Notes: generated by a model not told the origin, from the letters alone. DNA of 64,000 nucleotides from Candidatus Gottesmanbacteria bacterium (GCA_963809665.1 CAWEKC010000005.1:104392-168391), one strand, 5' to 3'; numbered from the stretch's first letter, positions 24,625 through 48,769 are shown. Numbers and translations are program-made.

Positions 24625-24668
24625 TCCAACCTCTTGCTTGCGTGACACCTCCGTGACGCGATACAATC

Positions 24669-27600: not shown

Positions 27601-28403
27601 AGTTTGCTCAGCGCGGCATGCCTATCACGCTCACCATGTCCGACTTCGACCTTGCGGATGCGGACTTTCAACGCATAGGCGCGTCGGGCCAACGGCGGAC
27701 CGACCAAGGCGACGCCATGTCAAGACTTGAGGCACGGAGCGCTCTGATGACCATACTAAACGACCCTGATGTTTCCCTTCCGGATAACCCAGAGAAGACA
27801 TTTATTCCCGTACTTAAGAAGCTTATGGGAGATATAAACAGTTATAAAGATGGATATTTTGCAGAAAAGCGATCTGCCATCATGCTAGATGCGGTATTAA
27901 GCCAGAATGTTGCAAAGGATTTTTACCGGGGCATAATTCAAGCAGTTCCGTTCTTGCCGGGGTTAATTCGCAATATTGTTGCACAGGACGCGCGGAAGCC
28001 GTTGGTCCGGGCGTTATTATGGCCCGCAAAGCAATTAGCCATGGGGTATGCAGACCTGAGCGGGCAATCCGAGTTACGTGAATTATTACAGTCGAATCCG
28101 GAAGAGTGGCCAAAAATATTCGGTCAGGAATTCATTTCGGAAGCTGCAGCGGTAAAGGGATTTCACGGTAATGCGCTTAAGGCGCTGGGGACAGAAAGAT
28201 TTATCCAGCAAATAGAGAAGTCGGGATTATTCACCCATCATGAGTTTCTTCACAATCTGAAGGATAAATATAAAACAAGGTTTCAGTTCAAGTTTGCCGA
28301 ATTCGGTATGCGGTATTGGTGGGTACCCTGGGCCGCAGCCCTCGCCGTGGGAATAATGATTGCGATGAAAGAGCAGGGGCTAGATTCGGACGGGCATAAA
28401 TAA
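24669..28403 (+). CDS. giant 1244-aa hypothetical protein with one predicted C-terminal TM helix (tail-anchored) and no recognisable catalytic motifs
   Basis: An uninterrupted ORF with balanced composition; the C-terminus RYWWVPWAAALAVGIMIAMKEQ is hydrophobic; it is convergent with the VirB6-like gene. Confidence 0.55.
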   Translation: MVSMAEAETKSETNVSKVIANILKAAREQSKQPKPEEVAKIVHRIYPEKKAAPDAKQARTDRIIENAKHVVVEAKIQGVHVSTGLHEWVGRNKLPILDKDPSQAFRIAKADLSVAIKASDLAEDHWVVRAASRVKNAESAEALAIIALAPEDVRENPNFMFQTAAQLAGSNLDPETQVTTKAFVAELKTLRGVDGFEMSDRQLSQALTEQGLGAMPAPSPDFDPALFSTLPNEAQDVFRALNSQLSGAATEVEKFEILDSFSDQIHAIDTKGFNQSQREVLSRLLVIKNSIERDLKFKISPRISVDKDWFRDNDLPIPKSKNFTFETRLSKEEIKAMCAKADEDGFDGFDRAYELLSDRIFTSGSEAHQPDITDSYEYKEIENLLRYVHGEESAIVNATRERWENDYRRNVVATRTITGGANEKELVESLPSAIASNTLNYEASIKFAPEAVAAEEQTIRELAAEQAFKCEKDTRYLKELIPDPDPHHIGEHISREEAWRRNPADFHGNEYIRTEDAMRAARGSIVHDEWFVPNSPKFARLIAVTKAMTDEIEDPVNPITEAAALVKYNDNANHELENLWKLVTLEKHPPPGGLYNPKYLNAIKGFSPLEIRTHKQLESFVKLKFLQQGRTWNEEVDNIKLRRAMFSARRYMVGSKRLFSLVGHLSNMPGLEIEAGAADVMPETLEYVMRTEVPERFVFARFGIGKEVGIRIMSVEQEELCALRGVTLDKNERLVPILNNSKSAKEESIPKRRYRTVLQKAKEKFGLRYTTLATGTLLESTSPFDYSTWRAEEGIWRVLQEKFGENARHMAYGTQLKLLGTYEGRIPETRKEVEAIKNYFERRRVLTEMTHRTPSFIFQLIGKDLDTSLENLRTTGAVHIDVSPGSTEGKKFFSILGLAERRVTTERSAPPGHNFFERGIFNLGTPTDFNEVFDDTLFHAVGITAREQIDALKVDYLKIIQTAQHVFNPRPEEGYLEQFAQRGMPITLTMSDFDLADADFQRIGASGQRRTDQGDAMSRLEARSALMTILNDPDVSLPDNPEKTFIPVLKKLMGDINSYKDGYFAEKRSAIMLDAVLSQNVAKDFYRGIIQAVPFLPGLIRNIVAQDARKPLVRALLWPAKQLAMGYADLSGQSELRELLQSNPEEWPKIFGQEFISEAAAVKGFHGNALKALGTERFIQQIEKSGLFTHHEFLHNLKDKYKTRFQFKFAEFGMRYWWVPWAAALAVGIMIAMKEQGLDSDGHK

Positions 28404-28407
28404 TAGT

Positions 28408-29820
28408 CTATCCTTCTTCTGCGGGAGGCGGTGGGGGATTGCCTTTGCCAGCCTCAATAGCATTATGAAGATCTCTATTACTTTGTAGTGTTTGTTTTTG
28501 AATTTTGTGGCTGGATATCATGCTTCCGATTTGAACTGCCTGCATGGCAATACCGCTTGCAGCACCCAGTCCTCCGCCCGTTCCGCCAAGAAGCGATTTA
28601 GTTTTAAGTGCCTGCTTGATGGAATTGGCCATACCCGGAATAGTGAGAAGTATTCCCAGACCGATAACTCCGATCCACCCCGAAGATCCTCCATTAGCGA
28701 GGAGCGGCGGGGTCCAGAGTTTGGTTGCACCCTGATCAAAATTGGCTAATATTGTCCCGACCATAAGCATCGCAGCGGTAACGGGGAATACGGCAATATT
28801 GGAAATTAAATTTTTGAACCACGACGAGAAGCCCGTACCGCCGGGGAATGCCTCGGTGAGAATTTGCAGCGGACCGATGAGCACGCTGATAAGAATTTGT
28901 ATATACGCGCCTACTAGCATAAATAATATACGAATCCACGCAATGACTAGTACAAGCGATACGATAATTGAAATGAGTGCACCGATGACCGGGGCGAGCG
29001 CACCCTCCGCGGCACCGGTAGCGCCTGCAGTAATGCCGCCGGTGAGAAGATCTGTAATGTTATTGACAGCAGCAAATCCCCCCCCGAACACCGCACTAAA
29101 GAGATTCCAGAATCCTCCGTTCACGTATGTTGATCCCGTTGTTGGCGCTAGTGCGCCGTTACTGACGGGAATCAACAGTGATGCGATGAGCGCGATCATC
29201 AAATACATGAGGTCAATCATAAATCCGACAATCGCATAAGAAAACGTAATCAGAAGAAGGGTAACGACGATTTTCGGTAGCGCATTCTGGACCGTCACAA
29301 CGGTCTTCGGATCGATTTTCTTCCGGAACATAACCATAAAACCAATAACAACCATCACGACCGCAAGCAGGGCATAGGCAATATTACGGAATCCCTTCCA
29401 GAGAGGAAGAAGAACGGAGAGACCGCTGAACCCGATTCCCTGCGCATTCACCTGACGCGGCATGAATCCGAGCGTTTGTCCGGTATCCCGTATCCACAGA
29501 GCCAGATCCGCAGGGGGATTGTTATACATGGCTACTGCCACGTTTTGCATTGAAGCAATTGCGCTCTTACCGTAATAGAATGCGCTTGCAGGGTTTGAGC
29601 TGCAGCCTGTAGCCATGCACGAGAATGTGTTCATGTAGAGCACCTGGGTATTTACGGTATACACTTCTTTGCTCATTTGTCCATTTTGAGATTTTTGGTC
29701 TACAACCGCGCCGAATTCTTCTGCGCTGGGCGCCGGATTAATCGCTTGTGCGTGGGCTGCCGGCACAAAAATCCAGCCAGTGAGAATGAGAACGAGGAAT
29801 ACGAGCAGCGTACGCTTCAT
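28408..29820 (-). CDS. VirB6/TrbL-like polytopic membrane protein with a signal peptide and a Pro-rich C-terminus
   Basis: Signal peptide MKRTLLVFLVLILTGWIFVPAAHAQA, a ~130-aa periplasmic segment, then at least six TM helices; it sits immediately upstream of the pilin array. Confidence 0.5.
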   Translation of the reverse strand: MKRTLLVFLVLILTGWIFVPAAHAQAINPAPSAEEFGAVVDQKSQNGQMSKEVYTVNTQVLYMNTFSCMATGCSSNPASAFYYGKSAIASMQNVAVAMYNNPPADLALWIRDTGQTLGFMPRQVNAQGIGFSGLSVLLPLWKGFRNIAYALLAVVMVVIGFMVMFRKKIDPKTVVTVQNALPKIVVTLLLITFSYAIVGFMIDLMYLMIALIASLLIPVSNGALAPTTGSTYVNGGFWNLFSAVFGGGFAAVNNITDLLTGGITAGATGAAEGALAPVIGALISIIVSLVLVIAWIRILFMLVGAYIQILISVLIGPLQILTEAFPGGTGFSSWFKNLISNIAVFPVTAAMLMVGTILANFDQGATKLWTPPLLANGGSSGWIGVIGLGILLTIPGMANSIKQALKTKSLLGGTGGGLGAASGIAMQAVQIGSMISSHKIQKQTLQSNRDLHNAIEAGKGNPPPPPAEEG

Positions 29821-29859
29821 AGATCTATTATGCTAACTATGTTGGTATGAGTCAATGTG

Positions 29860-30180
29860 TTAATAGCTGGGGATGGTAAATTGTGTGACATCTACGCCGG
29901 TAAATAAAGAAATCGTTTTCAGTATCAGGTAGGCAACAACGATAATAACGACGCCGGTGATAGCCGCCGTCAGCGTACCGCGCGCTTTCTCAAGTTTTTT
30001 CTGGTCTCCGCCGGATAACAGGAATCCGTAGCCCCCGACGATGAGCATCACAAATAAAGCAACGCCCACAAGCGCGGTGAGCGCCTGAACAACGCTGATA
30101 AATATCGGCTCAAAACATTTGAATGTTGCCACGTCCTGTGCATTTGGAAGTGTTGAGAAGCATCCTGACCAATCAGCCAT
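29860..30180 (-). CDS. TrbC/VirB2-like pilin family protein, copy 1 of a six-gene tandem array
   Basis: ~100 aa with two hydrophobic helices flanking the conserved motif LLSGGDQKKLEKARGTLTAAITGVVIIVVA. Confidence 0.55.
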   Translation of the reverse strand: MADWSGCFSTLPNAQDVATFKCFEPIFISVVQALTALVGVALFVMLIVGGYGFLLSGGDQKKLEKARGTLTAAITGVVIIVVAYLILKTISLFTGVDVTQFTIPSY

Positions 30181-30231
30181 GCAAACATTATCACGCAGAT
30201 TACGTTAGTAGGCAAGAGACAAGAGAGCGGT

Positions 30232-30561
30232 TTAGAACGGTGACGGTATTGAGATTGATCCGCCGATGATCTGTATGCCCAGGAAGTTCTGGACCAGAAT
30301 CATGACAGCCCATGCGGCGCCGACGATTATAAGTCCGACAATCGCGTGGGTAATTTTATTGCGGGCTGCTTCCATACCGGCTTTGTCGCCGCCGGACGTG
30401 ATCCACTGAATACCGCCCAGGATCAGGAAGAAGAACGCCATGAGTGCCGCAAGGATAAGGAGGAGACCGACGAGCGCACTGATGAGTTTCCCGATATCGC
30501 CGATTTTTACGTTCGTGGGTTGCGGGATAGTAATTTCTGCCTGTGCAAATACCTTTTCCAT
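30232..30561 (-). CDS. TrbC/VirB2-like pilin family protein, array copy 2
   Basis: ...ITSGGDKAGMEAARNKITHAIVGLIIVGAA. Confidence 0.55.
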   Translation of the reverse strand: MEKVFAQAEITIPQPTNVKIGDIGKLISALVGLLLILAALMAFFFLILGGIQWITSGGDKAGMEAARNKITHAIVGLIIVGAAWAVMILVQNFLGIQIIGGSISIPSPF

Positions 30562-30635
30562 AATTCCTCCTTATAACGATCGGTTTCTATTATATCCTTG
30601 CTCTCATTGTTGCGCAACCGTCTTCGGTTTGTCAA

Positions 30636-30992
30636 CTATTGATTAATGCCCGGAATGGTGAGGTGCGTGAGTTCAATACCGAAAAATCGTCCGACCAGCG
30701 TCATGATGGCGAACGCCGCCGCCACAATCACCAGCCCCATGATGGCGTTGGTGATACCATTCCGTGCCTTTTCAAGTGCCTGTTTATCTCCGCCCGCGGT
30801 AATCCATTGAAGGCCGCTGGTAATAAGAGTCATGAACGCGAGTAAGAACGCCGCGATAAACAGCGCACCGATCAGATTGCTGATAAGCAGTCCCAGCGCG
30901 TTGCCGCCCTGGCTTACATCAGGGTGTGAACCGCCCCCTAAAGCGGGAGGCAGGATGGGATTCCGGATTTGCGCAAGAAAATTTATTCTCAT
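30636..30992 (-). CDS. TrbC/VirB2-like pilin family protein, array copy 3
   Basis: ...ITAGGDKQALEKARNGITNAIMGLVIVAAA. Confidence 0.55.
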   Translation of the reverse strand: MRINFLAQIRNPILPPALGGGSHPDVSQGGNALGLLISNLIGALFIAAFLLAFMTLITSGLQWITAGGDKQALEKARNGITNAIMGLVIVAAAFAIMTLVGRFFGIELTHLTIPGINQ

Positions 30993-30995
30993 ACC

Positions 30996-31379
30996 TTATT
31001 TAATTTGTAATTGTTCTATGATTTTTGCGGGATCGCCGACAAGAATGTCATAGCCCAGGAACTGACCGACCGTCGCAATGATGATCCATGCGGCAACGAC
31101 GATAATGAGTCCGAAAAACCCGTTCATGATCCGCTGCCTGGCAGTTGTGAGCTTTTTTACGTCGCCCGCGCTGGAGATCCACTCATATCCGCCGAAGAGG
31201 AGCTGGAATAAAAACCAGATGCTGCCGGCGATCGTCATAAACCCGACGATTGCCGAAATAGCGTTGGTTACCTGGATAAGCGCTCCTGTGCCCGTTGTGG
31301 CGGGGTTTTTGCCGAATGGCCCCAATCCTTCACCCCCGATAGGGCCGAGCGGAACCTGTGTTTGTGCAAGAAGTGTCAT
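30996..31379 (-). CDS. TrbC/VirB2-like pilin family protein, array copy 4
   Basis: ...ISSAGDVKKLTTARQRIMNGFFGLIIVVAA. Confidence 0.5.
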   Translation of the reverse strand: MTLLAQTQVPLGPIGGEGLGPFGKNPATTGTGALIQVTNAISAIVGFMTIAGSIWFLFQLLFGGYEWISSAGDVKKLTTARQRIMNGFFGLIIVVAAWIIIATVGQFLGYDILVGDPAKIIEQLQIK

Positions 31380-31744
31380 GGGTTGGGTGCGTAAATCTTG
31401 GGATTTAAAATAAATCCTGCATCGCCGAATAATAAATATCCGAAGAGAGCGGCAAGAGCAAACGATCCGACGACAAGGATAAGTCCTATCAGCGACTGCC
31501 AGATTTTACTCATGGCTTTTTCAATCGCTTTGGAATCTCCGCCGGCACTCATAAATTGGAATCCCGCTAGGATAAGGTTAAAAAAGGCGAATAATCCCGC
31601 TACTACAAATACAAGCCGGAGAATATTAGTCAAAAACACTGTAAGACCACCGATGCCCCGATATGCTGGAGCAATCTGGTCGTTTGTGACCTTCCCGACA
31701 ATACTGGTTGCGTCCTGTGCGAATATTTTTTCTATACCGATCAT
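31376..31744 (-). CDS. TrbC/VirB2-like pilin family protein, array copy 5
   Basis: ...MSAGGDSKAIEKAMSKIWQSLIGLILVVGS. Confidence 0.5.
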   Translation of the reverse strand: MIGIEKIFAQDATSIVGKVTNDQIAPAYRGIGGLTVFLTNILRLVFVVAGLFAFFNLILAGFQFMSAGGDSKAIEKAMSKIWQSLIGLILVVGSFALAALFGYLLFGDAGFILNPKIYAPNP

Positions 31745-31749
31745 AATTA

Positions 31750-32133
31750 TTACAGTCCGACTATCTGCTTTAACATGGGCGAGCCCGTTATGGTGGCGAT
31801 CACCTGTACGATAAGTACAGACAGTACGACAATAAGAAGTCCTATGACCGCGCCGGTTATCGCATTTTTTCCCTGATTGGTTTGTTTTGCATCACCGCTC
31901 CCTGTTCCCATAATAACGCCGAATCCGCCTATAATCAATAAAACAAAGCTGATAATGCCGGCAAACACGACGGCATTTTTGACGATAAGGGTTACAATTT
32001 GACCAAAATCTGTAAATGTAGCCGCCGGAGCGAAAACGTTAGGGTCACCAATATTTACAGCCATGCATTTAGTGTACGGGAGTGTGATTCCACTGTCAAT
32101 TTGTGCTATAGTTATAGCCTGTGGACGACGCAA
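31750..32133 (-). CDS. TrbC/VirB2-like pilin family protein, array copy 6; probably starts at the internal Met (MAVNIGD, ~32064) rather than overlapping the sigma-factor start
   Basis: ...IMGTGSGDAKQTNQGKNAITGAVIGLLIVVLS. Confidence 0.5.
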   Translation of the reverse strand: MRRPQAITIAQIDSGITLPYTKCMAVNIGDPNVFAPAATFTDFGQIVTLIVKNAVVFAGIISFVLLIIGGFGVIMGTGSGDAKQTNQGKNAITGAVIGLLIVVLSVLIVQVIATITGSPMLKQIVGL

Positions 32134-32660
32134 ACATCATCCCTAAGATTCTTGCGCGCGACCGGCAGGCACTGCTGATATTTTACCGCAGGTATGCCCC
32201 GAAGCTCTCGCGTTTTATTGCCGGAAAGATCGCAAATCCGGCAGACGCGGAAGAGGTTTTGCAGGATACGCTCTACGCATTTCTGGAGGCTATCCGCGAT
32301 TTTCAGGGAAAGAGTAACATCCAGACCTTCTTATTTTCCATTTGCCAGCACAAAGTTATCGATTATTACCGGAGAAAGAAGCTGAAACACGCAGTCTTTT
32401 CCCAGATGCCGCAGCTTGAGGCGATTATTTCGCCGCTCGTAAGTCCCGAAGAACAGCTGGACGCCGTCCTGGTGCGTGAGAAAATCCATGCGGTATTGGG
32501 TAGGCTCTTGCCGCGCCACCGCCAGATACTGATGCTTAAATATCTGGACGGATTGTCCGTTGAGGAAATTGCAAAACGCCTGGCCATGACATTTAAGAGT
32601 GTCGAGTCCCAGCTTTTCCGGGCGCGCAAAGCCTTTGTTGAATATTTTATATCCATATGA
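32121..32660 (+). CDS. ECF-type RNA polymerase sigma factor (sigma-70 regions 2 and 4)
   Basis: Region 2 LQDTLYAFLEAIRDFQGKSNIQTFLFSICQHKVIDYYRRK; region 4 LSVEEIAKRLAMTFKSVESQLFRARKAFVEY. Confidence 0.8.
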   Translation: MDDANIIPKILARDRQALLIFYRRYAPKLSRFIAGKIANPADAEEVLQDTLYAFLEAIRDFQGKSNIQTFLFSICQHKVIDYYRRKKLKHAVFSQMPQLEAIISPLVSPEEQLDAVLVREKIHAVLGRLLPRHRQILMLKYLDGLSVEEIAKRLAMTFKSVESQLFRARKAFVEYFISI

Positions 32661-32914: not shown

Positions 32915-33532
32915 ATGGAAACATCGCTTATTGTCGCGCTCGTTGAATTCAGCAGGAATATTATAGGACTTGTTACCCGTCCATATGAGACTTGCCGCAG
33001 GATTGCGGATCGCGGTGGATTTGGAGAACTTGTATATGTAGCGGTACTTCTTTCCGTATATTTCGCTTTTGCGTCACTCGTAAAAGTTGCTTCATTCCGG
33101 CCGTTTTTACTTTCCCGCCAGTTTATCGTTCTTTGTGCTGCGACGGGGGGAACATATCTTTTTGCCGTTGCGCTTTTTTGGACGGCGGGAAAGTTGGTTG
33201 GGGCCCACGGACGGTTGAAGGGCCTTGCCGTCCTGTGGGGATATTCGCTTCTGCCTACGCTTCTTTGGTTTTTCACTACGTCTCTCCTATATCTTCTGTT
33301 GCCTCCGCCACGCACAACAAGCGTCCAGGGCATTCTTTTCAGTGTGTTATTCCTCGTGTTTTCCACCACGTTGTTATTATGGAAAATGACGATTGCGTAT
33401 TTATCACTCCGGTTCGGGCTCAGGCTGGGTTTAGGAAAAATTCTGGTTATATTGGTGGTCTCACTCCCGATTCTGGGACTGTATAGCTATTGGCTGTATC
33501 ATTTAGGGATATTCAGAATTCCATTTTTATGA
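32915..33532 (+). CDS. polytopic membrane protein, possibly Yip1-family-like
   Basis: 205 aa with ~5 TM helices; an ATGA overlap with the next gene. Confidence 0.4.
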   Translation: METSLIVALVEFSRNIIGLVTRPYETCRRIADRGGFGELVYVAVLLSVYFAFASLVKVASFRPFLLSRQFIVLCAATGGTYLFAVALFWTAGKLVGAHGRLKGLAVLWGYSLLPTLLWFFTTSLLYLLLPPPRTTSVQGILFSVLFLVFSTTLLLWKMTIAYLSLRFGLRLGLGKILVILVVSLPILGLYSYWLYHLGIFRIPFL

Positions 33533-34650
33533 ATATGAGGGATTACAAAACCGTTTCGGAAAGACGCAAGGCTTTTGAGAAAAAGCTTACCATAGATTTG
33601 AAACATATAGGCGCCTTTACGCTGGATGAATCGGCTGCTTCGACACGGAATTGCGAAAACATGATCGGCGCGGCACAGATACCCATAGGTGTTGCCGGCC
33701 CGCTTCGTATTACACATAAGGATTATTACGTACCGCTTGCAACGACCGAGGGGGCGCTTGTGGCATCCGTCAACCGCGGATGCAAGGCTATTACAGCATC
33801 AGGAGGTGCAATGGTTGACAGCTACAGGGTGGGTGCTACCCGCGGACCGGTATTTAAAGTAAAAAATCTCAAAGAAAGTGGTGAACTGAATGCTTTTTTG
33901 GTGAAAAATTTTGCGGAGTTTCAGAAGATTGCCGCTCAAACGTCACATCATCTCACATTGAAAAAATATATGGATCGCGGGGTAGGGCGATATCGCTATG
34001 TGCGTTTTGTTTTTGACACCCAGGATGCCATGGGCATGAACATGGTGACCATTGCGACGCAAAAACTTGTTAAGTTCATTGAAACACAAACGACAGCGCG
34101 CTGTATTTCTTTAGCAGGTAATTATGATGTGGACAAAAAGCCCTCGTGGCTCAACGTTATTGAAGGGCGTGGTGTCAAGGCGTGGGCAGAGGTCACAATT
34201 CCGGAGAGAATTCTACGGGGCGTATTAAAAGCCACCGCACAGAAAATGTATGACGTGTGGCTTGCCAAATGCATGATAGGATCGGCGATGTCCGGCTCGA
34301 TGGCGTTTAATGCGCACTATGCAAACATTGTTGCAGCGCTGTTTTTAGCAACAGGCCAGGATATTGCACATGTTGTGGAAGGAAGTTTAGGGATAACAAC
34401 AGCGGAGGTTATACAAAAAGATCTGTATGTAAGTGTGTATCTGCCGGATCTCATGGTCGGCACCGTCGGCGGAGGAACAGGGCTGGCGACCCAGCGTGAA
34501 GCATTGAAACTTTTTGGCGCGCAGGATAGCAGAAATTTTGCTGAAGTTATAGCGGGCACGGTTTTGGCAGGAGAAGTATCACTGTTGGCATCATTGTCCG
34601 AAGGGACACTGGCAAAAGCGCACAAAACGTTAGCAAGGGGAGGGAACTAA
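33529..34650 (+). CDS. hmgA: 3-hydroxy-3-methylglutaryl-CoA reductase (short archaeal/bacterial class I type)
   Basis: ENMIGAAQIPIGVAGPLRI...TTEGALVASVNRGCKAI...DAMGMNMV...GTVGGGT; the start is set at the ATGA junction MNMRDYK. Confidence 0.85.
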   Translation: MNMRDYKTVSERRKAFEKKLTIDLKHIGAFTLDESAASTRNCENMIGAAQIPIGVAGPLRITHKDYYVPLATTEGALVASVNRGCKAITASGGAMVDSYRVGATRGPVFKVKNLKESGELNAFLVKNFAEFQKIAAQTSHHLTLKKYMDRGVGRYRYVRFVFDTQDAMGMNMVTIATQKLVKFIETQTTARCISLAGNYDVDKKPSWLNVIEGRGVKAWAEVTIPERILRGVLKATAQKMYDVWLAKCMIGSAMSGSMAFNAHYANIVAALFLATGQDIAHVVEGSLGITTAEVIQKDLYVSVYLPDLMVGTVGGGTGLATQREALKLFGAQDSRNFAEVIAGTVLAGEVSLLASLSEGTLAKAHKTLARGGN

Positions 34651-35726
34651 TGGTCGGGATCGTTTCATACGGTACATATATTCCGGAGTATCGGATTAAA
34701 CTTGCCGATATTGCCTCGGCGTGGAAAAAGGACCCCCGGGAAGTGGTGGGATCATTAGGGGTCGAAGAAAAATCAGTGCCTGGCACGGATGAAGATGCGG
34801 TTACTATCGCGCTACAAGCCGCATTCAATAGTCTGGCGGCGTTTCGGGGAAAGCCTGCGGACATAGAAGCATTGTTCGTAGGTTCGGAAAGTCATCCGTA
34901 TGCCGTGAACCCCACTTCAACAATTGTCGGAGAACTATTGGGAGTCGGACACAATTATTTGGCAGCGGATCTGGAATTTGCCTGTAAGGCGGCAACTGCC
35001 GGTATACAGGCGGTTGCGGGACTTATTGAGTCCGGACAGACGGGCTTTGGTTTGGTCATCGGGGCGGACACTGCCCAAAGCAAGCCGCATGACGCGCTGG
35101 AGTATACCTCGGCGGCAGCGGGAGCCGCGTATCTTATGTCTGGCGAAGCTAGATCTCGCTCCGCGAGATCCGAGAAACAACAGCTCATTGCCAAGCTTCT
35201 CGCATACACGTCCTATTCCTCGGATACACCTGACTTCTGGAGGCGTGACGGTATCCGGTATCCCTCCCACGCCGGTCGGTTTACCGGTGAACCGGCATAT
35301 TTTGCGCACGTTATAGGGGCGGCAACCCGATTACTTACCAAGACTCATACGAAACCGGAGGATTTTGATTATTGTGTATTCCATATGCCTAACGGTAAGT
35401 TTCCGCGTGATGTTGCCCGCAGGCTGGGTTTTAGTAAAGAACAATTGTCTGCGTCCCTGACGGTGGATCACATCGGCAATCCGTACGCCGCGTCTGCCAT
35501 GCTGGGGCTTGCCGCAGTACTGGACAGAGCAAAACCGGGAGAGAAGATATTCATGACGTCGTATGGGTCTGGTGCCGGTGCGGACGCTTTTGTCTGGGAA
35601 ACGACCCCGCTATTGTCGCGGGTGCAAAGGATCCGCGGCAAGCGGGGTGATTTAGTCACCCAACAGATAGTGAAAAAAAATTACATCAATTATGTTGAGT
35701 ATTTGAAGCAGACACACAAAATATGA
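34650..35726 (+). CDS. HMG-CoA synthase, archaeal type
   Basis: MVGIVSYGTYIPEYRIKLADIASAWKKDP...GSESHPYAVNPTSTIV...FACKAATAG is characteristic of archaeal HMGCS. Confidence 0.85.
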   Translation: MVGIVSYGTYIPEYRIKLADIASAWKKDPREVVGSLGVEEKSVPGTDEDAVTIALQAAFNSLAAFRGKPADIEALFVGSESHPYAVNPTSTIVGELLGVGHNYLAADLEFACKAATAGIQAVAGLIESGQTGFGLVIGADTAQSKPHDALEYTSAAAGAAYLMSGEARSRSARSEKQQLIAKLLAYTSYSSDTPDFWRRDGIRYPSHAGRFTGEPAYFAHVIGAATRLLTKTHTKPEDFDYCVFHMPNGKFPRDVARRLGFSKEQLSASLTVDHIGNPYAASAMLGLAAVLDRAKPGEKIFMTSYGSGAGADAFVWETTPLLSRVQRIRGKRGDLVTQQIVKKNYINYVEYLKQTHKI

Positions 35727-36863
35727 ACGTATTTATAACCGGGGCAGCAACAACAAAATTCGGGGAGTTGTGGGCAACGTCACCCCGCCGGCTGGCGGGT
35801 GAGGCTGTCGGCAACGCACTGAAAGATGCCGGCATTGGTATCCGGCGGGTTCATGCACTATTCGTCGGAAACATGTTATCCGGTATTCTTGCCGGACAGG
35901 AGCATTTAGGTGCGTTTTTCGCCGAAGAATTAGGCCTTACCGTTCCCGCTTTTAAAGTAGAAGGCGCATGTGCATCCGGAGGCCTTGCGCTACATAACGC
36001 GGTAAACAGCGTCCTGTCAGGCCAATATGATACCGTGGTTGTTCTTGGGGTGGAGAAAATGACGGACCATAAACCGGAAGATGTCGCCACAGCCCTCATG
36101 GGTGCGGGATCGGAAGAAGAACGGGTGGCAGGTGCAACCTTCCCGGGTTTATATGCAATTCTCGCACGTGCGCACATGATGGAATACGGGACGACCCGGG
36201 AGCAGCTTGCCGCGGTTGCCGTCAAAAATCATTATCATGCATCCTTAAACCCAAACGCGCAATTTCACACAACCATTACCATTGAACAGGTTGCACAGAA
36301 GCCCACGTATTGCCGACCCTTTACGGCTTCTGGATTGTTCGCCCATTTCAGACGGCGCATCAGCAGTTGTGGTAAGTAATAAGAAATCGTCACACGGTAT
36401 TACTATTGCAGCAAGCACTGTCGCGACGGATTCATTGGGACTTGCGAAGCGAGCATCTTTAACACAACTTGCTGCAACCAAGGAATCAGGAAAACGCGCA
36501 TACACTAAGGCTGCCATTTCACCTGAGGATGTTGATGTTGCGGAGGTCCATGATTGTTTTACGATTGCCGAAATACTTGCGATGGAAGATTTGGGTTTCT
36601 ATGCAAAAGGAAAAGCCACCGCCGCGATTATGGCCGGCGAAACGCAGTTGGGGAAATCCCACCATTTGGTTGTTAATCCATCCGGTGGGCTTAAAGGATG
36701 CGGGCATCCGGTAGGAGCCACAGGGATTAAACAAGTGGTGGAACTAGTGGAGCAGTTGCGGGGGAGGGCCGGAGTACGTCAAGTAAAACAAGCGAAGATT
36801 GGTTTAGCACATAATGTGGGAGGTTCAGGAGCAACCGCCGTTGTGCATATTTTAAAAAAATGA
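35723..36863 (+). pseudogene. acetoacetyl-CoA thiolase (archaeal-type thiolase partner of HMGCS) interrupted by a single-nucleotide frameshift near 36298-36300
   Basis: ORF 35723..36379 (..KVEGACASGGLALHNA..) and ORF 36282..36863 (..IADPLRLLDCSPISDGASAVVV..) are in frames +2 and +0; deleting one a from cagaagccc restores the contiguous thiolase sequence EQVAQSPRIADPLRLLDCSP. Confidence 0.7.
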
Positions 36864-37165
36864 ATACGCAGAGTCCGGTAAAAATTTGGAGAAACCAGAA
36901 ATATATCGCGGGCATGCTCGGGCGTGAGGGCACTATTGTTTCCTGGACGGTCGTCCGCGTGCCGCCCGGCGGGTTTTCGAGCCTTGCCCCGTATCCGGTT
37001 GTTGTTGTTGACATAGGAGGAGACGGAAGAATTATCGCTCAACTGGTTGACTGGACTGAAAATGATTTAGCTGCCGGGCGAAAAGTCCGGGTTGTGGTAC
37101 GGCGCATATCCGAGCCCACAACCGAGGGTGTTATCCCGTACGGGATTAAAGTGAAACCCGTTTAA
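36860..37165 (+). CDS. DUF35 OB-fold protein, the scaffold subunit of the archaeal thiolase/HMGCS complex
   Basis: 101-aa ORF with an ATGA overlap with the thiolase stop; ...EGTIVSWTVVRVPPGGF...PYPVVVVDIGGDGRIIAQLVD is a DUF35-type OB fold. Confidence 0.65.
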   Translation: MNTQSPVKIWRNQKYIAGMLGREGTIVSWTVVRVPPGGFSSLAPYPVVVVDIGGDGRIIAQLVDWTENDLAAGRKVRVVVRRISEPTTEGVIPYGIKVKPV

Positions 37166-37175
37166 TGGTTTATAT

Positions 37176-38087
37176 ATGAAAATTACAGTATCGGTTCCCG
37201 GAAAAATATATTTGATGGGCGAGCATGCGGTGGTGTACGGAAGACCGGCTCTGCTTTCTGCAATAAACCTCCGTTTATCCGTTTCCGTTGAGCCGGCAAA
37301 ATCTCTGAAAATTATCTCAACGGAGTCTTCCGATTATGTACGCCATGCCGCGGAGTTTGTATCGAAAGAATACGACCTGCAGAAACCGCTAAACGTCAAA
37401 ATTACCGTCACATCGGATATTCCTGCGGGGTATCATCTGGGCTCATCAGCCGCGGTAGCGGTCGCGGTGGTCGGCGCACTGACGTATTATCTGAAAAAAG
37501 TCTGGAATCCGCAGATCGCGAATCAATTAGCCTATGAAATCGAGAAAAAACAACACGGAAATCCGTCGGGCGCTGATAACACGATGGTCACCTCGGGAGG
37601 GTTTTTGTGGTATAGAAAAGAGCTTGAGTTTTTACGGAGTTTTTGGCAGTTACCCTTCAAAATGCCCTCCACGTTACACCATTTTTTTCTCATTGATACG
37701 GGACGGCCGAAAGAAAATACGGGGAAGATGGTTGCGCTGGTCCGTGCGGAATATCAAAAGCACGTATCGCGCTACAAAAAATTATTTGATAAAAATGAAG
37801 ATCAGACAAAACGGATTGCCGTTGCGTTAAAAGAAGGGGATGAAAAAGCATTGATTTCGTCCATGAGGTATGGACAGAGGACACTTGAAGAAATGGGAGT
37901 TGTGAGTAAAAAAATTACTCCCCTCATCAGAAAGATAGAACGGGCAGGAGGAGCGGCAAAAATTCTAGGTGGAGGAGGACGGACCGCGGGAGTAGGTTAT
38001 CTATTATGCTATTCCCACCCGCGGCCGGGCGGCGGCATACCGATTACGTTGGGAGAAGAAGGGATACGGTTGGAAAAAAATATATGA
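37176..38087 (+). CDS. mvk: mevalonate kinase (GHMP kinase family)
   Basis: VSVPGKIYLMGEHAVVYGRPAL and the GHMP motif PAGYHLGSSAAVAVAVVGAL. Confidence 0.7.
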   Translation: MKITVSVPGKIYLMGEHAVVYGRPALLSAINLRLSVSVEPAKSLKIISTESSDYVRHAAEFVSKEYDLQKPLNVKITVTSDIPAGYHLGSSAAVAVAVVGALTYYLKKVWNPQIANQLAYEIEKKQHGNPSGADNTMVTSGGFLWYRKELEFLRSFWQLPFKMPSTLHHFFLIDTGRPKENTGKMVALVRAEYQKHVSRYKKLFDKNEDQTKRIAVALKEGDEKALISSMRYGQRTLEEMGVVSKKITPLIRKIERAGGAAKILGGGGRTAGVGYLLCYSHPRPGGGIPITLGEEGIRLEKNI

Positions 38088-38995
38088 CAATCAGCGCACC
38101 CGGAAAACTCATGCTGTTTGGAGAACACGCCGTCGTGTACGGTCATCCGTGTATTACGACCGCAGTGGACATCCGGCTATCAGTTTCCATTGAGTCTACC
38201 GGTGACGGAAAAATCACGATCAATGCGCCGGAGGTGAAAGACACGCGTTTTGTCGATGCGGCGATTACACTTGCGACTAACGAGTGGCATATTCGGCACA
38301 ACGGATTCCGCCTTTCGACCAAAAGTCCGTTTTCCGGATGCTACGGATTTGGTTCATCTTCAGCCGTGACGGTAGCCACGCTGAAAGCTCTGGCCGGCCT
38401 GGGTAATACAGATATTGATGAGCGGAAACTATTTGATGCTGCCTACAATATAGTCCTGTCCATACAGGGTACCGGGTCGGGATTTGACGTGGCATCAGCG
38501 GTATACGGCGGGACGTTATATTTTTTAAAAGGCGGCAAGGTCATTGATCCGCTTGCGGTGGATGATATGCCGCTGGTTATCGGGTATACCAAAGTAAAAA
38601 GCAATACGGTGGATGTTGTCAAAATGGTGGCAGGTAAACAGGAAAAGTATCCGGAAAAAGTGAACAGGATCTTCTTAGGGATTGCCGAACTCGTGGATCA
38701 GGCGAAGGCAGAGATCCTTGCAGGAGACTGGGAGCGCGTCGGCAGGCTCATGGATTTTGACCAGGAGTATCTGCGCGATCTCGGGGTAAGTTCGGAAAAA
38801 TTAGAGGCACTGATTACCGCAGCCAAAAGCGCGGGGGCATGGGGAGCAAAGCTATCAGGTGCAGGGTGCGGGGACTGTATGATTGCCCTTGCCTCACCGG
38901 ATACGCGGGTAGCGGTAGAAGAGGCCATAACCGGCGCCGGCGGAGAGGTAGTGCGGGTTTCCCCGAATGCAGAAGGGGTAAGGATAGATCCATGA
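38084..38995 (+). CDS. second GHMP-family kinase, probably phosphomevalonate kinase
   Basis: ISAPGKLMLFGEHAVVYGHPCITTAV and GFGSSSAVTVATLKALAGL; ATGA-coupled on both sides. Confidence 0.55.
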   Translation: MTISAPGKLMLFGEHAVVYGHPCITTAVDIRLSVSIESTGDGKITINAPEVKDTRFVDAAITLATNEWHIRHNGFRLSTKSPFSGCYGFGSSSAVTVATLKALAGLGNTDIDERKLFDAAYNIVLSIQGTGSGFDVASAVYGGTLYFLKGGKVIDPLAVDDMPLVIGYTKVKSNTVDVVKMVAGKQEKYPEKVNRIFLGIAELVDQAKAEILAGDWERVGRLMDFDQEYLRDLGVSSEKLEALITAAKSAGAWGAKLSGAGCGDCMIALASPDTRVAVEEAITGAGGEVVRVSPNAEGVRIDP

Positions 38996-39912
38996 AAGCG
39001 ACGGCGAAAGCGCCCGCAAACATCGCATTCATTAAATATTGGGGCAAGAAAAATGCCCGGTTACACCTGCCGTACAATGCCTCCATTTCGATGAACTTAA
39101 GCAAATGTACGACAACAACAACCGTAGAGTTTTCAGAGGATTTCGGAGAAGATGTAGTTTCTACGGGTTTCAATAAGAAAAGAATCATTGCGCATATTGA
39201 CCGGTTGCGGACATTAGCAGGCAACCGGCAAAAAGTACGTGTAACGACAAAAAATTCCTTCCCGACATCTGCCGGTATTGCGTCATCTGCGTCCGGATTT
39301 GCAGCGCTAACGATGGCAGCGGCCTCGGCGTTAGGATTAAAACTTTCCGAAAAGGAATTAACTGGTCTTGCGCGCCTCGGGTCCGGGTCCGCCTGCAGGA
39401 GTATTCCTGACGGATTTGTGAAGTGGGAGGACTCTTTTGCGTATTCGTTATACCCGCCGGAGTATTGGGACATACGGGATATTCTTCTCATTGTCGACAA
39501 GTCACAAAAACACGTGGCTTCTGCCTTGGGGCACGAGGGCGCAACTACAAGCCCGTATTTCGGCATGAGACTGGAGAGGCTGCTCGGTAGGATTGCGCGC
39601 ATAGAAGAAGCATTACGGAGGAAAAATTTTCAGGTATTCGGTGAGGTAACCGAGGAGGATTGCTTAGATATGCACCATGTCATGCAGACGCAGCAACCTC
39701 CGCTTATGTATTGGAATGATGCGACGAGGAAGATTATGAGTGATGTTATTGCCTGGAGAAAACAAGGAATATCCGCATACTTTACGATCGACGCCGGACC
39801 GAATGTACACCTGATTTGTGAAGGAAAAGACGAGAAACGTATTACGGATAAAATTGGAACTACATATCAAATTATTGTAAATAAGCCGGCACGGGGAGCG
39901 CACATTATATGA
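38992..39912 (+). CDS. mvaD: diphosphomevalonate decarboxylase
   Basis: APANIAFIKYWGKKN, NSFPTSAGIASSASGFAALTMAAA and GSGSACRSI. Confidence 0.8.
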   Translation: MKATAKAPANIAFIKYWGKKNARLHLPYNASISMNLSKCTTTTTVEFSEDFGEDVVSTGFNKKRIIAHIDRLRTLAGNRQKVRVTTKNSFPTSAGIASSASGFAALTMAAASALGLKLSEKELTGLARLGSGSACRSIPDGFVKWEDSFAYSLYPPEYWDIRDILLIVDKSQKHVASALGHEGATTSPYFGMRLERLLGRIARIEEALRRKNFQVFGEVTEEDCLDMHHVMQTQQPPLMYWNDATRKIMSDVIAWRKQGISAYFTIDAGPNVHLICEGKDEKRITDKIGTTYQIIVNKPARGAHII

Positions 39913-40580
39913 TTCCAAAACATATTGCCATAATTATGGACGGAAACCGACGGTGGGCCCGGGTGCACAATCTGCCGGTCCTTGAGGGGCACCGGCGCGT
40001 TGCCAATGAGGTGCTGGAAAAATTAGTGGAACACGCAGCGGCGCGCGGCGTGAAGTATCTGACATTTTGGGCGTTTTCCACGGAAAATTGGCATCGTGCA
40101 CCGGACGAGGTGAAAGGAATTATAACGATACTAAAGCAAAGTATCGGATATTTCGGCAAGCGGATGCATAAGAAAGGAGTGCGGTTATTGGCTATCGGAG
40201 ATCTTTCAGGGTTTGACAGCCAATTGCAGCGTTCTATTACGTCCGTAGTAGCGTTAACCCAACACAACAAGAAAATTACCGTCATCATCGCATTGAATTA
40301 CGGCGGAAGGGATGAAATTATCCGTGCGGTTAAGAAAATTACACGCCCTGATATGGTTACGGAAGAGGAAGTCTCGCACCTATTGGACACCCGCGGTATA
40401 CCTGATCCGGAATTACTCATACGGACCGGCGGCGAACAGCGCCTGAGCGGTTTTTTACCGTGGCAGAGTGTGTACAGTGAGCTCTATTTTCCAGCGTGGT
40501 ATATGCCTGATTTTACACCTCTACGATTAGACGAGGCGATTGAAGAGTATGCGCACCGGCATCGAAGATTTGGGAAATAA
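39909..40580 (+). CDS. uppS: undecaprenyl-diphosphate synthase (cis-prenyltransferase)
   Basis: HIAIIMDGNRRWA...LTFWAFSTENWHR...RTGGEQRLSGFLPWQSVYSELYF. Confidence 0.9.
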   Translation: MIPKHIAIIMDGNRRWARVHNLPVLEGHRRVANEVLEKLVEHAAARGVKYLTFWAFSTENWHRAPDEVKGIITILKQSIGYFGKRMHKKGVRLLAIGDLSGFDSQLQRSITSVVALTQHNKKITVIIALNYGGRDEIIRAVKKITRPDMVTEEEVSHLLDTRGIPDPELLIRTGGEQRLSGFLPWQSVYSELYFPAWYMPDFTPLRLDEAIEEYAHRHRRFGK

Positions 40581-40583: not shown

Positions 40584-40934
40584 CTAAGGGACTCTGGGAA
40601 AGACACTGTTTATGGATTCAAGCCCGAAGATGGTGCCGACAAGCTGGACAATCCAGTATGCGGCAAACACGATGAAAAACCCCACGATTGCATTTGTGAG
40701 CTGCTGTTTTCCCTGTTGCATTTTTTTTGCATCACCCGCGCTGGTTAAAAACGTATAGCCGGCGGAAATCAGCATGAGGAGTAATCCCAGTCCTGCAAAC
40801 GCCATTACTAAAGGAACTGCAGTAGAGAGAATGGCGCCGATGGTCGGGTTGGGTCCAGCTCCAGGAATATTGAGTGGGCCTTTTAGAGTGTTGCCGCCCG
40901 GCAGAGTTAAATTTTGTGCCAATAGGTTGTGCAT
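40584..40934 (-). CDS. TrbC/VirB2-like pilin family protein (seventh paralog, outside the main array)
   Basis: ...LTSAGDAKKMQQGKQQLTNAIVGFFIVFAA has the same motif as the six-gene array. Confidence 0.5.
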   Translation of the reverse strand: MHNLLAQNLTLPGGNTLKGPLNIPGAGPNPTIGAILSTAVPLVMAFAGLGLLLMLISAGYTFLTSAGDAKKMQQGKQQLTNAIVGFFIVFAAYWIVQLVGTIFGLESINSVFPRVP

Positions 40935-40938
40935 ACTA

Positions 40939-42120
40939 TTATAAAAACCCAGGAATACCGAGGATAGTTACCCCGATAAGCCGCAATATAAATATTGAAA
41001 AGATTATAATGAGCAATCCCGTGATGGCGCTGGTGACCAGTTCTTTTCCGGCATTGAGTCTTTCCGGGTTTCCGCCGCTCATGAGTATCTGGAACCCACC
41101 GAAGAGAATGAGGAGAAACGCAATCCCGCCGCCGATACCCACCCCGATCCCGATAACTTGCCCAATGAAGGTGGCCGGATCAGTCGGGATGCATCCAAAA
41201 GCTGTCCACGCATGTAGCCCATCGGCCATGCACGCGTGACACGTATCAACGTTGGTTCCGGCAAATTCACAGACTTTGGTTGCTTGGTCAGAACTCGATT
41301 TTTTTACACAGCACCCGCTCGCCAGACATAGACCGATATCCCAGGCTTCATCCGGCAGTTTCTGATTGCAGTCTTGATTAGTCGTACAGACTCCTCTTCG
41401 ACCGTCACTTGTTTTGCAGGTTTGACCGAGGGTTGGCCTCTTTGTTTCCGGTGATCCAGGTCTGGCTGCGCAGCAGCCGGGTATTGCTGTAAGTTTATAC
41501 ACATCCATACATTGGTCAGGATCTGGATTAAAATTAATATTTGAATTATCTTTATTACACTCGGTAAAGAGTGAACATAACCCCGGCCAGCTTTCCGTCT
41601 TACTTATTATGAGCGTGCAGGTTTTTTGTCCTGTTGTGACGGGTTTTGTTGCGCAGCAGCCGCCTGCCTTACATGTTTTCCTGTCCCACACCCCATTATC
41701 CTGAAAGTCAATAACTAAGCAGTTAAACGTGTCTGTACAGATACCCGGCCATGTGTTTCCGGCGGTACATTTCTCACCAATGCCAGGCAACGCAGCATCG
41801 GGTGTTCCCGGTTTGATTCCGCAACAGCCGACGGGGTATCCCTTATCCGGATTCTCATCAGGCATGCATGTTGTGACTGCCGAATCCCATTTTCTATTGC
41901 CGCTTGATACGATACAATCCTGTTTTATTACACACTGTCCTGACCAGGCAGGGTCGTTGATGGTGGTACAAGGATCCCCAACGTGTTCATATTTTTGACC
42001 TGGTCCATACGGATCGGCTGCATGTGCTTTTGTCGCGAGCATTCCAAAAATTCCGGTGGCTAAAATGAAGAATAAGGAGGTCAGAATAACCTTTTTAAGC
42101 ATACGATATAAGTGTATCAA
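40939..42120 (-). CDS. secreted Cys-rich protein (~33 Cys) with a C-terminal TrbC/VirB2-like pilin domain; putative pilus-associated adhesin or minor pilin
   Basis: Signal peptide MIHLYRMLKKVILTSLFFILATGIFGMLATKAHA; recurring motifs such as GCCxxKP/GCCA; C-terminus GGFQILMSGGNPERLNAGKELVTSAITGLLIIIFS matches the pilin motif. Confidence 0.5.
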   Translation of the reverse strand: MIHLYRMLKKVILTSLFFILATGIFGMLATKAHAADPYGPGQKYEHVGDPCTTINDPAWSGQCVIKQDCIVSSGNRKWDSAVTTCMPDENPDKGYPVGCCGIKPGTPDAALPGIGEKCTAGNTWPGICTDTFNCLVIDFQDNGVWDRKTCKAGGCCATKPVTTGQKTCTLIISKTESWPGLCSLFTECNKDNSNINFNPDPDQCMDVYKLTAIPGCCAARPGSPETKRPTLGQTCKTSDGRRGVCTTNQDCNQKLPDEAWDIGLCLASGCCVKKSSSDQATKVCEFAGTNVDTCHACMADGLHAWTAFGCIPTDPATFIGQVIGIGVGIGGGIAFLLILFGGFQILMSGGNPERLNAGKELVTSAITGLLIIIFSIFILRLIGVTILGIPGFL

Positions 42121-46585: not shown

Positions 46586-47029
46586 ATGAAGATTTTCAAT
46601 AAGAAAGCCACGTTTGAATACGAGATCCTGGAACGATTTGAGGCCGGGGTTAATCTGACGGGTGCTGAGGTGAAATCCATAAAAGGGGGCCACGCACAGC
46701 TGACCGGCGCGTTTGTGCGGATTATCGGAAGTGAGGCGTACCTCGTCAACGCCCAGATTTTCCCCTATATTTATGCCCGTCCTGAAGGGTATGAGTCCAA
46801 ACGGACTCGCAAACTCCTGCTTCACAAATCCGAACTCATCAGGCTCAAAAGCAAGCTGGACGGCGCTAATTTGACCCTGATACCCCTCTCTTGGTATACT
46901 AAAGGCCCCCTAGTGAAGCTCGAAGTTGGCCTTGCGCGCGGTAAAAAAGAGTATGAGAAACGCGAGGCTAAGCGCAGGGAAGATCTGAAAATAGAACTAG
47001 AGCGGGATTATAGGGGGAAAGTAAAATAA
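46586..47029 (+). CDS. smpB: SsrA-binding protein
   Basis: ...NLTGAEVKSIKGGHAQLTGAFVRI...KRTRKLLLHKSELIRLKSKL. Confidence 0.9.
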   Translation: MKIFNKKATFEYEILERFEAGVNLTGAEVKSIKGGHAQLTGAFVRIIGSEAYLVNAQIFPYIYARPEGYESKRTRKLLLHKSELIRLKSKLDGANLTLIPLSWYTKGPLVKLEVGLARGKKEYEKREAKRREDLKIELERDYRGKVK

Positions 47030-47032
47030 TGG

Positions 47033-47416
47033 GGACGTACAAGATTCGACAGTCCGAAGTTCTTTAACATTGCAGGCCGACTTTGACTTTAGAGTCGTTA
47101 AACACAGAGTCAAAAACTAAATGCTGAAGCTGAACAAGCAGAAGCTGCCTTCTACGCACGAAATTTTGCATTCGCAAGATTGAACGCGTAACGGCCATCT
47201 CTCGAATGTTTCTTCAGTGACGTTCCTGAGGTGTAAACAAAGCTGAGGTGCAGCTATACGGGTTCGACGTTCCTGTATAGTGAAGTCAATACGTCTTAAT
47301 CCCGCCATTCACTTGTCAATCAGCGAGGGCGGGATGACAATTAAAGATTGACTACGCCTGTAGATATGTTTCGGGACATCGCTCTGGACGAGAGCTCACT
47401 ACTCTCCGTCTCCACC
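47033..47416 (+). ncRNA. ssrA: tmRNA (SsrA), standard one-piece form
   Basis: The 5' end GGGGACG..GATTCGACAG; the 3' end GGAC-GAGAG-CTCACTA-CTCTC-CGTCTCC-A-CC closes a 7-bp acceptor stem with the 5' end; an internal ORF ...GCT GAA GCT GAA CAA GCA GAA GCT GCC TTC TAC GCA CGA AAT TTT GCA TTC GCA AGA TTG AAC GCG TAA is a candidate tag; it lies directly downstream of smpB. Confidence 0.7.
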
Positions 47417-47438
47417 CTTCGCTCCTCCTGTATGATAG

Positions 47439-48107: not shown

Positions 48108-48108
48108 T

Positions 48109-48747: not shown

Positions 48748-48769
48748 TTTGGGGTATAATACGCACCAC

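Follow-up and report, generated by a model that had tools for sequence, protein, structure and literature searches.

A likely lineage-typical mevalonate operon in a Candidatus Gottesmanbacteria bacterium, with a probably artefactual break in its thiolase gene

The archaeal complex of thiolase, 3-hydroxy-3-methylglutaryl-CoA (HMG-CoA) synthase (HMGCS) and a DUF35 protein, from Methanothermococcus thermolithotrophicus (6ESQ, 6ET9), was reportedly described by Vögeli et al. in 2018. Mevalonate gene clusters of the Candidate Phyla Radiation (CPR) and its Microgenomates combine archaeal and bacterial features and are linked to a cis-prenyltransferase, and the pathway has been inferred to be ancestral and present in the CPR ancestor (Hoshino & Gaucher 2018, PMC6107057). 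A 2024 analysis has revisited the CPR mevalonate data and points to a recent placement of the CPR as sister to Chloroflexota. Here we analyze a mevalonate gene cluster in a 64,000-nucleotide stretch of DNA, referred to below as the window, from a Candidatus Gottesmanbacteria bacterium (GCA_963809665.1, CAWEKC010000005.1:104392-168391). The cluster runs from an HMG-CoA reductase (HMGR) gene to the gene for undecaprenyl-diphosphate synthase (UppS). It is likely to be the lineage-typical mevalonate operon of this bacterium, following the pathway proposed below, with a thiolase gene that carries an indel artefact.

Gene order, coupling and distribution of the operon

An initial annotation of the window had described eight co-directional genes, in the order listed in Table 1 from HMGR to UppS, as a mevalonate-pathway operon of a CPR-like bacterium. 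All eight products were found on the plus strand in that order, and their identities support the description. HMGR scored 411 bits against TIGR00533, slightly below the cut-off of 441.8, and UppS matched its equivalog model (225.9 bits on TIGR00055, cut-off 109.6; 234 bits on PF01255). The genes between 33529 and 40580 are tightly coupled. Five junctions are ATGA overlaps (HMGCS/thiolase, thiolase/DUF35, K1/K2, K2/decarboxylase and decarboxylase/UppS, K1 and K2 being the two kinases), the HMGR/HMGCS junction is a TAATG with an overlap of 1 nt, and DUF35 and K1 are separated by a gap of 10 nt, in good agreement with the earlier count of at least five overlapping junctions. The operon had been taken to start at 33529, but the coupled unit begins farther upstream, as the end of the Yip1 gene overlaps the HMGR start by ATGA; the stop of the extracytoplasmic function (ECF) sigma factor gene likewise overlaps the start of the gene for a 76-aa membrane protein by ATGA. 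Through these overlaps all genes, the Yip1 gene included, are probably translated as one coupled unit. The GC content of the operon (0.49-0.52) is the same as that of its surroundings. Promoter and terminator scans over 31.7-41.2 kb returned sites no commoner than in shuffled sequence and were not used.

In the pathway that we propose, the archaeal-type thiolase and HMGCS, held by the small DUF35 scaffold, would condense three acetyl-CoA to HMG-CoA, which the class I reductase would convert to mevalonate. The two kinases of the mevalonate kinase (MVK) family and the MDD-family decarboxylase would then carry mevalonate to isopentenyl diphosphate (IPP), with K1 most likely acting as MVK, K2 as phosphomevalonate kinase (PMK) and the decarboxylase as diphosphomevalonate decarboxylase (DMD). 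UppS would use IPP to make the undecaprenyl carrier lipid that serves cell-envelope synthesis, and the adjacent ECF sigma factor may regulate the operon.

Related loci were collected by scanning one genome per species, which returned 80 loci (cited by number where needed, as in L051), about 50 of them from Gottesman-, Levy-, Roizman-, Davies- and Dojkabacteria. For the HMGCS alone, over 120 database clusters showed 69-89% identity, and those that carried a name were Candidatus Gottesmanbacteria or Patescibacteria. In about 50 Microgenomates species the common order is HMGR-HMGCS-thiolase-DUF35-K1-K2-(IDI)-decarboxylase, IDI being an IPP isomerase gene, with UppS and the ECF sigma factor alongside in most. 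Archaeal loci (Archaeoglobus, Micrarchaeota, Methanosarcinales), at about 50% HMGCS identity, keep only HMGCS, thiolase and DUF35 together. The phylogenetic check suggested in the initial annotation was run for HMGCS and thiolase: in neighbor-joining trees the CPR sequences of each protein formed one clade apart from the archaeal sample, within which the window sequences nested with Gottesmanbacteria loci. The archaeal-type trio beside a eukaryote/Gram-positive-type lower pathway had been presented as a chimeric layout. Since the same order recurs in about 50 Microgenomates species and was described in 2018 (PMC6107057), it is instead the normal state of the lineage. The operon thus adds one more example of a cluster type published in 2018, and such mixed archaeal and bacterial clusters are already part of the debate on whether the mevalonate pathway goes back as far as LUCA (last universal common ancestor).

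The window cluster shares with the published one (PMC6107057) the archaeal acetoacetyl-CoA thiolase, HMGCS and HMGR-I, the three GHMP enzymes and the synteny with the cis-prenyltransferase, as well as the occurrence in Microgenomates and the grouping of CPR sequences in a clade of their own. It differs in that IDI-I, which is fused or adjacent to K2 in many relatives, is not in the cluster, and in that its thiolase is frameshifted. Neither DUF35, nor Yip1 or ECF sigma neighbors, nor a decarboxylase resembling phosphomevalonate decarboxylases (PMDs) occurs in that publication.

The titles of some database records conflicted with their gene content. A "Methanoperedens" record (L015) held a CPR-type cluster with a zinc-less DUF35, a "Saccharimonadales" record (L077) held an archaeal-type DUF35, and many "uncultured Gammaproteobacteria" TPA (third-party annotation) records were obvious CPR loci; mis-binning or default labels are the likely cause. 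Additional genes were inserted between the kinases and the decarboxylase in several loci, namely a SAM-methyltransferase (L017, L028, L032, L036) and a HAD-hydrolase (L036, L075). In one Roizmanbacteria locus (L049, 12112-13167) a full GcpE/IspG gene of the methylerythritol phosphate (MEP) pathway (PF04551, 331 bits) lies inside the mevalonate cluster.

Table 1. Genes of the mevalonate cluster and its upstream neighbors (window coordinates)
Feature	Coordinates	Strand	Basis
ECF-type sigma factor	32121-32660	+	Pfam Sigma70_r2, r4_2, ECF
76-aa protein, single C-terminal membrane helix	32657-32887	+	ORF (open reading frame); no Pfam match
Yip1-domain membrane protein	32915-33532	+	Pfam Yip1, 37.8 bits
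Class I (NADPH-type) HMG-CoA reductase, soluble, 373 aa	33529-34650	+	PF00368, 399 bits
Archaeal-type HMG-CoA synthase (HMGCS), 358 aa	34650-35726	+	NF003274, TIGR00748
Archaeal-type acetoacetyl-CoA thiolase, split by 1-nt insertion	35723-36863	+	NF004720
DUF35/OB-fold protein, 101 aa, without zinc ribbon	36860-37165	+	PF01796 only, 54.7 bits
GHMP kinase K1, MVK family	37176-38087	+	TIGR00549, 177.5 bits
GHMP kinase K2, MVK family	38084-38995	+	TIGR00549, 193.8 bits
MDD-family ATP-dependent decarboxylase	38992-39912	+	TIGR01240, 255.6 bits
Undecaprenyl-diphosphate synthase UppS (cis-prenyltransferase)	39909-40580	+	TIGR00055, PF01255

The archaeal-type trio and the split thiolase gene

Judged by family models and structural matches, HMGCS, thiolase and DUF35 are of the archaeal kind, as the initial annotation had proposed. 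HMGCS passes the archaeal equivalog models NF003274 (465 bits, cut-off 244) and TIGR00748 (415 bits, cut-off 353) and fails the bacterial HMGCS model (117 bits vs 360) and the FabH models. Its best match among solved structures was 6ESQ chain I at 350 bits, compared with 64-70 bits for bacterial mvaS-type synthases and about 50 bits for FabH; the grouping with ordinary FabH-like enzymes, named earlier as the outcome that would speak against an archaeal type, was not observed. The catalytic tetrad E80, C112, H245 and N277 was invariant in 28 CPR sequences. An Arg/Ser-rich insertion of nine residues, EARSRSARS (residues ~164-172, 35130-35160), is absent from the relatives of 347-349 aa and from the archaeal enzyme. 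The three genes are adjacent and ATGA-joined (34650-37165), and their adjacency is kept in 50 or more CPR loci and also in archaeal loci.

The DUF35 protein consists of an N-terminal "WR" helix joined directly to the OB fold, and its match to 6ESQ chain E (42 bits) covers residues 48-128 only. Of the N-terminal rubredoxin-like zinc ribbon and the C-terminal OB fold looked for in a DUF35 protein, only the OB fold was found: the window protein has zero cysteines and no CxxC. The same holds across the CPR, where no copy has a CxxC and nearly all loci encode 98-106 aa, whereas the archaeal copies are 122-145 aa long and all carry two CxxC. No mention of DUF35 in CPR, and thus of a ribbon-less form, was found in the searchable literature.

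Compared with the M. thermolithotrophicus complex, the window likewise has three adjacent genes, with 350, 318 and 42 bits to chains I, A and E of 6ESQ/6ET9 (for thiolase, the score of an intact orthologue), and the catalytic motifs are retained. It differs in the ~30-residue Cys4 zinc ribbon, which the DUF35 proteins of the window and of all CPR loci examined are without, and in having HMGR directly upstream of the trio and kinases downstream. By homology to 6ESQ/6ET9, the trio may form a complex that channels acetoacetyl-CoA.

The thiolase had been annotated as one gene, and the earlier reading missed that it is split. It comprises two ORFs, 35723-36379 (218 aa) and 36282-36863 (193 aa, +1 frame), which cover positions 3-203 and 193-386 of the NF004720 model, respectively. 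Alignment with L001 and L003 located a single extra base, GTT GCA [C] AGA AGC, at about 36296, so that frame A spans 35723-36295 and frame B 36297-36863. The extra base is absent from seven close relatives, and all other CPR loci that were fetched and gave a full-length match read their thiolase in one frame. The acyl-enzyme cysteine motif CxS (CAS) lies in frame A, and the HDxF (HDCF) and GHx (GHP) motifs lie in frame B; hence neither fragment would be active alone. The intact orthologue of L003 passed NF004720 (467 bits, cut-off 420) and had 318 bits to 6ESQ chain A; its score on the M. thermolithotrophicus equivalog was 444 bits (cut-off 600).

We regard the one-base insertion as probably an assembly or sequencing indel and not as biology. 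The 193 downstream codons contain no further stop or indel and are 79-82% identical to orthologues, like the neighboring genes. Moreover, an O-antigen ligase (Wzy_C) gene on the minus strand of the same window (5170-6390) is distributed over three frames (6347-6171, 6220-5726 and 5736-5170), while in Gottesmanbacteria the homologues are intact at about 400 aa and cover the spliced query at 100%. Two frameshifts within 1.2 kb of this gene point to indel errors in the assembly, which favors an artefact in the thiolase as well. In the relative L001, which comes from a 995-kb ENA contig, K1 is similarly broken.

Several observations weigh against the proposed operon being intact: as sequenced the thiolase gives no full-length enzyme, it is the sole split gene in the 21-kb stretch syntenic with relatives, and no reads or same-species contigs were found showing the extra base to be erroneous (two metagenome scans for the site, with and without the extra base, gave no match). 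Of the window's HMGCS, DUF35 and K1 proteins, searched for as exact matches, K1 was found at 100% identity on a 191,671-bp NCBI/ENA contig. Loss of pathways is frequent in CPR bacteria, which are reduced symbionts, and a very recent pseudogene in this population would fit an insertion that is present here, absent from all relatives and not in a homopolymer run; acetoacetyl-CoA would then come from another thiolase or from host-derived precursors, or decay of the operon would be beginning. We consider this unlikely, as no other gene of the unit, ten in all, is broken and their coupling is tight, the downstream half is undamaged and conserved, and the frameshifts in other window genes fit an indel-prone assembly. 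Programmed +1 ribosomal frameshifting would account for two halves that lie in the 0 and +1 frames and share an overlap window, but the shift site GCA CAG AAG has neither a stop nor a rare codon, the zero-frame stop lies 27 codons downstream and the arrangement is found in no relative, and we rejected this option as scarcely credible. We also rejected two alternatives that concern the trio as a whole. One is a Friedel-Crafts acyltransferase repurposed like PhlABC/MucABC, which would not form HMG-CoA; it has on its side that PhlA is the second-best structural relative of HMGCS (182 bits) and that PhlC is among the thiolase matches. The repurposed bacterial Phl/Muc complexes, however, have lost the HMGCS E-C-H-N tetrad and the thiolase HDxF (PMC12960953), both of which the window keeps, and the trio is placed between HMGR and the mevalonate kinases, making such a role highly improbable. 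Very improbable, too, is a one-off chimera by recent transfer from an archaeon, to which the HMGCS identity of about 50% with Archaeoglobus, Micrarchaeota and Methanosarcinales and the passed archaeal equivalogs might point: the trio has the same neighbors in about 50 Microgenomates species, the CPR sequences form one clade with the window inside Gottesmanbacteria, the loss of the zinc ribbon is a derived trait common to CPR, the GC content of the operon is like that of its surroundings, and ancestry in the CPR ancestor has been inferred in the literature.

Kinases, decarboxylase and the route to isopentenyl diphosphate

Both K1 and K2 exceed the cut-off of the MVK equivalog TIGR00549 (163 bits). 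Their scores on PMK models were 61 and 77 bits for TIGR01220, the Gram-positive PMK (cut-off 166), and 36 and 72 bits for NF040957 (cut-off 500); on TIGR01219 (cut-off 377) K1 scored 19 bits and K2 had no match. Profiles built from 33 K1 and 31 K2 orthologues ranked MVK structures first for both, with 113-120 bits to Listeria PMK and 41-58 bits to S. pneumoniae PMK. An AlphaFold2 (AF2) model of K1 (pLDDT 91) gave MVKs as the best Foldseek superpositions (TM 0.83), and K2 was more archaeal-MVK-like than K1, with 156 bits to M. mazei MVK 6MDE. Used to pick out the PMK, neither the profile searches nor AF2/Foldseek discriminated between K1 and K2.

A Daviesbacteria-like locus (L051:8369-11120) bears on the roles of the two kinases. 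Here a K1-type kinase is the sole GHMP kinase and is followed by a decarboxylase and a bona fide isopentenyl phosphate kinase (IPK; NF040647, 192 bits, cut-off 120), and K2 is missing. This gene set is a Chloroflexi/haloarchaeal-type route inside the CPR. It speaks for K1 as the mevalonate kinase and for K2 and IPK as alternatives, in which case K2 would be PMK. As neither kinase passes the PMK cut-offs, the PMK step is assigned to K2 by elimination only, and K2 is presumed to fill it; the family scores and L051 point different ways. The earlier label "likely PMK" for K2 agrees with the K2/IPK alternation and not with the PMK models, none of whose cut-offs was reached. The initial annotation needs correction in its treatment of the thiolase, its operon boundaries and its confidence in the lower-pathway assignments.

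In seven species K2 is fused to an IDI-like NUDIX domain (L001, L004, L006, L008, L009, L013, L020). The fusions are 448-495 aa long, for example L001:13440-14786 (NF002995, 89 bits) and L004:13340-14779. An IDI gene lies between K2 and the decarboxylase in L040, L044, L049, L050 and L065, unfused in L040, L044, L049 and L065; at this position IDI is absent from the window and about ten other loci.

The decarboxylase clears the cut-off of TIGR01240, the DMD equivalog (171 bits), and scored 155 bits against a cut-off of 475 on the PMD model NF040704. Its best match in the PDB was the Anaerolinea thermophila PMD 6N0X (248 bits, 46% identity), compared with about 175 bits and 37-38% identity to Firmicutes DMDs. 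The sequence carries the motifs YWGK, GSGSACRS, ASALGH and DAGPN, with the catalytic Asp of DAGPN present. Two substitutions, Asn to Lys in YWGx and His to Met, set the entry 6N0Z apart from 6N0X, and 6N0Z would seem from its sequence to be the specificity-switched mutant mentioned in PMC9254496. At these positions the window decarboxylase combines a DMD-like Lys with a PMD-like His. It has Ser-Ala where DMDs have Ser-Arg, and at the five comparable positions of the phosphate-site table of Dellas et al. 2013 it shows the DMD-like set Tyr, Lys, Ser, Ser and Ser. The Anaerolinea PMD is thus the closest characterized homologue, with the His shared and the DMD Ser-Arg pair absent, and it differs from the window enzyme, which has Lys and not Asn in YWGx, Ser-Gly-Ser as in DMDs, and a passing score on the DMD equivalog model. 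In about 28 of 45 CPR decarboxylases (L020-L050 and others; Levy-, Roizman- and Daviesbacteria) DAGPN is replaced by NTGQD or NTGQN, which changes the catalytic aspartate to Asn; the window sequence keeps DAGPN.

The lower pathway had been called eukaryote/Gram-positive-type; its Gram-positive character is not borne out, as neither kinase reaches a PMK cut-off and the nearest characterized relative of the decarboxylase is a PMD. It resembles mvaK1-mvaD-mvaK2 of Firmicutes in that three GHMP-superfamily enzymes are encoded together and in that two phosphorylations are probably followed by an ATP-dependent decarboxylation. It differs in lacking any kinase of the Gram-positive PMK family and in having upper enzymes of the archaeal and not the mvaS/thiolase II type. 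The difference from the Chloroflexi/haloarchaeal MVK-PMD-IPK route is a second kinase in place of IPK.

Among about 60 ORFs of the 64-kb window, Pfam and NCBIfam scans found no IPP isomerase, in line with the initial annotation. The sole NUDIX protein (53870-54391) was rejected as a candidate, being MutT-like and not IDI-like. Neither an IPK/AA-kinase protein (the tblastn query was an M. jannaschii IPK sequence), nor a trans-prenyltransferase, nor MEP genes were found in the window, and among the related loci IPK was present in L051 only. Since an allylic primer is required by UppS in addition to IPP, the isomerase and trans-prenyltransferase must lie outside the window.

On balance, the coupling of a second kinase to the decarboxylase and the lack of an IPK nearby favor DMD activity, with a probability somewhat better than even. 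Three points tell against the lower pathway as assigned: neither kinase reaches the cut-off of any PMK model, both being MVK-like; all 45 CPR decarboxylases examined are nearer to the characterized PMD than to Firmicutes DMDs; and, of the two residues altered in 6N0Z, one is His in the window enzyme. An alternative is a non-classical lower pathway in which the decarboxylase acts on mevalonate 5-phosphate, or on both substrates, IPK is encoded elsewhere and one MVK paralogue is redundant or has another substrate. Such a pathway would be in keeping with the identities of 46% to the Anaerolinea PMD versus 37-38% to DMDs, a preference common to all 45 CPR copies, with a His that is Met in DMDs and 6N0Z, with Ser-Ala for Ser-Arg, with the unexplained IPK homologues in Microgenomates (Hoshino & Gaucher, PMC6107057) and with L051, which pairs a K1-type kinase with a Lys+His decarboxylase and IPK and has no K2. 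It is nevertheless unlikely, given that TIGR01240 is passed (256 vs 171 bits) and the PMD model is far under its cut-off, that the five phosphate-site residues of Dellas et al. 2013 are DMD-like, that two kinases are coupled to the decarboxylase, that IPK is in no locus but L051, the window included, and that K2 and IPK appear as alternatives across loci.

It has been proposed on biochemical grounds that PMD evolved into DMD and that PMK arose by MVK duplication (PMC9254496). Tentatively, and with less than even probability, the CPR lower pathway could be a surviving intermediate from the MVK-PMD-IPK route to the eukaryote-type MVK-PMK-DMD route, a reading that, if true, would match this scenario. 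The CPR "PMK" would be a second MVK paralogue, the decarboxylase a member of the PMD clade that gained the DMD Lys and kept the PMD His, and L051-like sister lineages would still use K1, decarboxylase and IPK; the DUF35 zinc ribbon would, in the same reading, be dispensable for the thiolase/HMGCS scaffold. We found no description in the searchable literature of two MVK-family kinases with no PMK-model match in CPR, of the PMD-like, mixed-specificity character of the CPR decarboxylase, or of biochemical work on any CPR mevalonate enzyme. With a ribbon-less DUF35, two MVK-family kinases, a decarboxylase that groups with Chloroflexi PMDs and the complementarity of K2 and IPK, the CPR pathway is a good target for enzymology, and the biochemistry of its enzymes could test the steps that have been proposed, and their order, for how the eukaryote-type pathway evolved.

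Upstream genes and the wider window

In most CPR loci an ECF sigma factor lies upstream of HMGR. Gottesman- and Roizmanbacteria have it co-directional with the cluster, Levybacteria have it divergent. Its companions in Gottesmanbacteria are a Yip1 protein and a small membrane protein: L001 and L003 have small ORFs of 76-81 aa at the equivalent position, and the Yip1 gene is conserved among Gottesmanbacteria-like loci. By its position, the sigma factor may regulate the mevalonate cluster, and may thereby adjust the supply of carrier lipid to envelope stress; the 76-aa membrane protein is a possible anti-sigma partner.

CPR-type type IV secretion genes border the operon on either side (19251-32133 and 40584-42120); they include a TraG/VirB4-like ATPase, PrgI and at least eight T4SS (type IV secretion system)-pilin paralogues. 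The window also carries yidC, and dnaA-dnaN (13350-16028) marks a replication-origin region. In the region 46586-53580, smpB adjoins a tmRNA gene (47031-47417), followed by a cluster of six tRNA genes for Ser (four) and Arg (two) only.

Two further probable frameshifts were observed on the minus strand. At about 2740-2776 the N-terminal membrane helix of a DUF4012 protein (ORF 2355-3452) resumes in the frame of ORF 908-2776. At about 52841-52935 a large membrane protein with a C-terminus resembling penicillin-binding proteins (PBPs) is split over ORFs 52841-53335 and 51628-52935, and this protein stops at the beginning of its PBP dimerization domain. The frameshifts in the window call for caution with gene-loss calls from this assembly.

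Toward the end of the window, the GC content falls to 37-38% over 60-64 kb. A complete group I intron core (Rfam RF00028, 65 bits) lies on the plus strand at 60236-60434, with no recognizable host rRNA, tRNA or protein gene. Just upstream of it, ORF 59511-60197 shows weak helix-turn-helix matches, with no family assignment.

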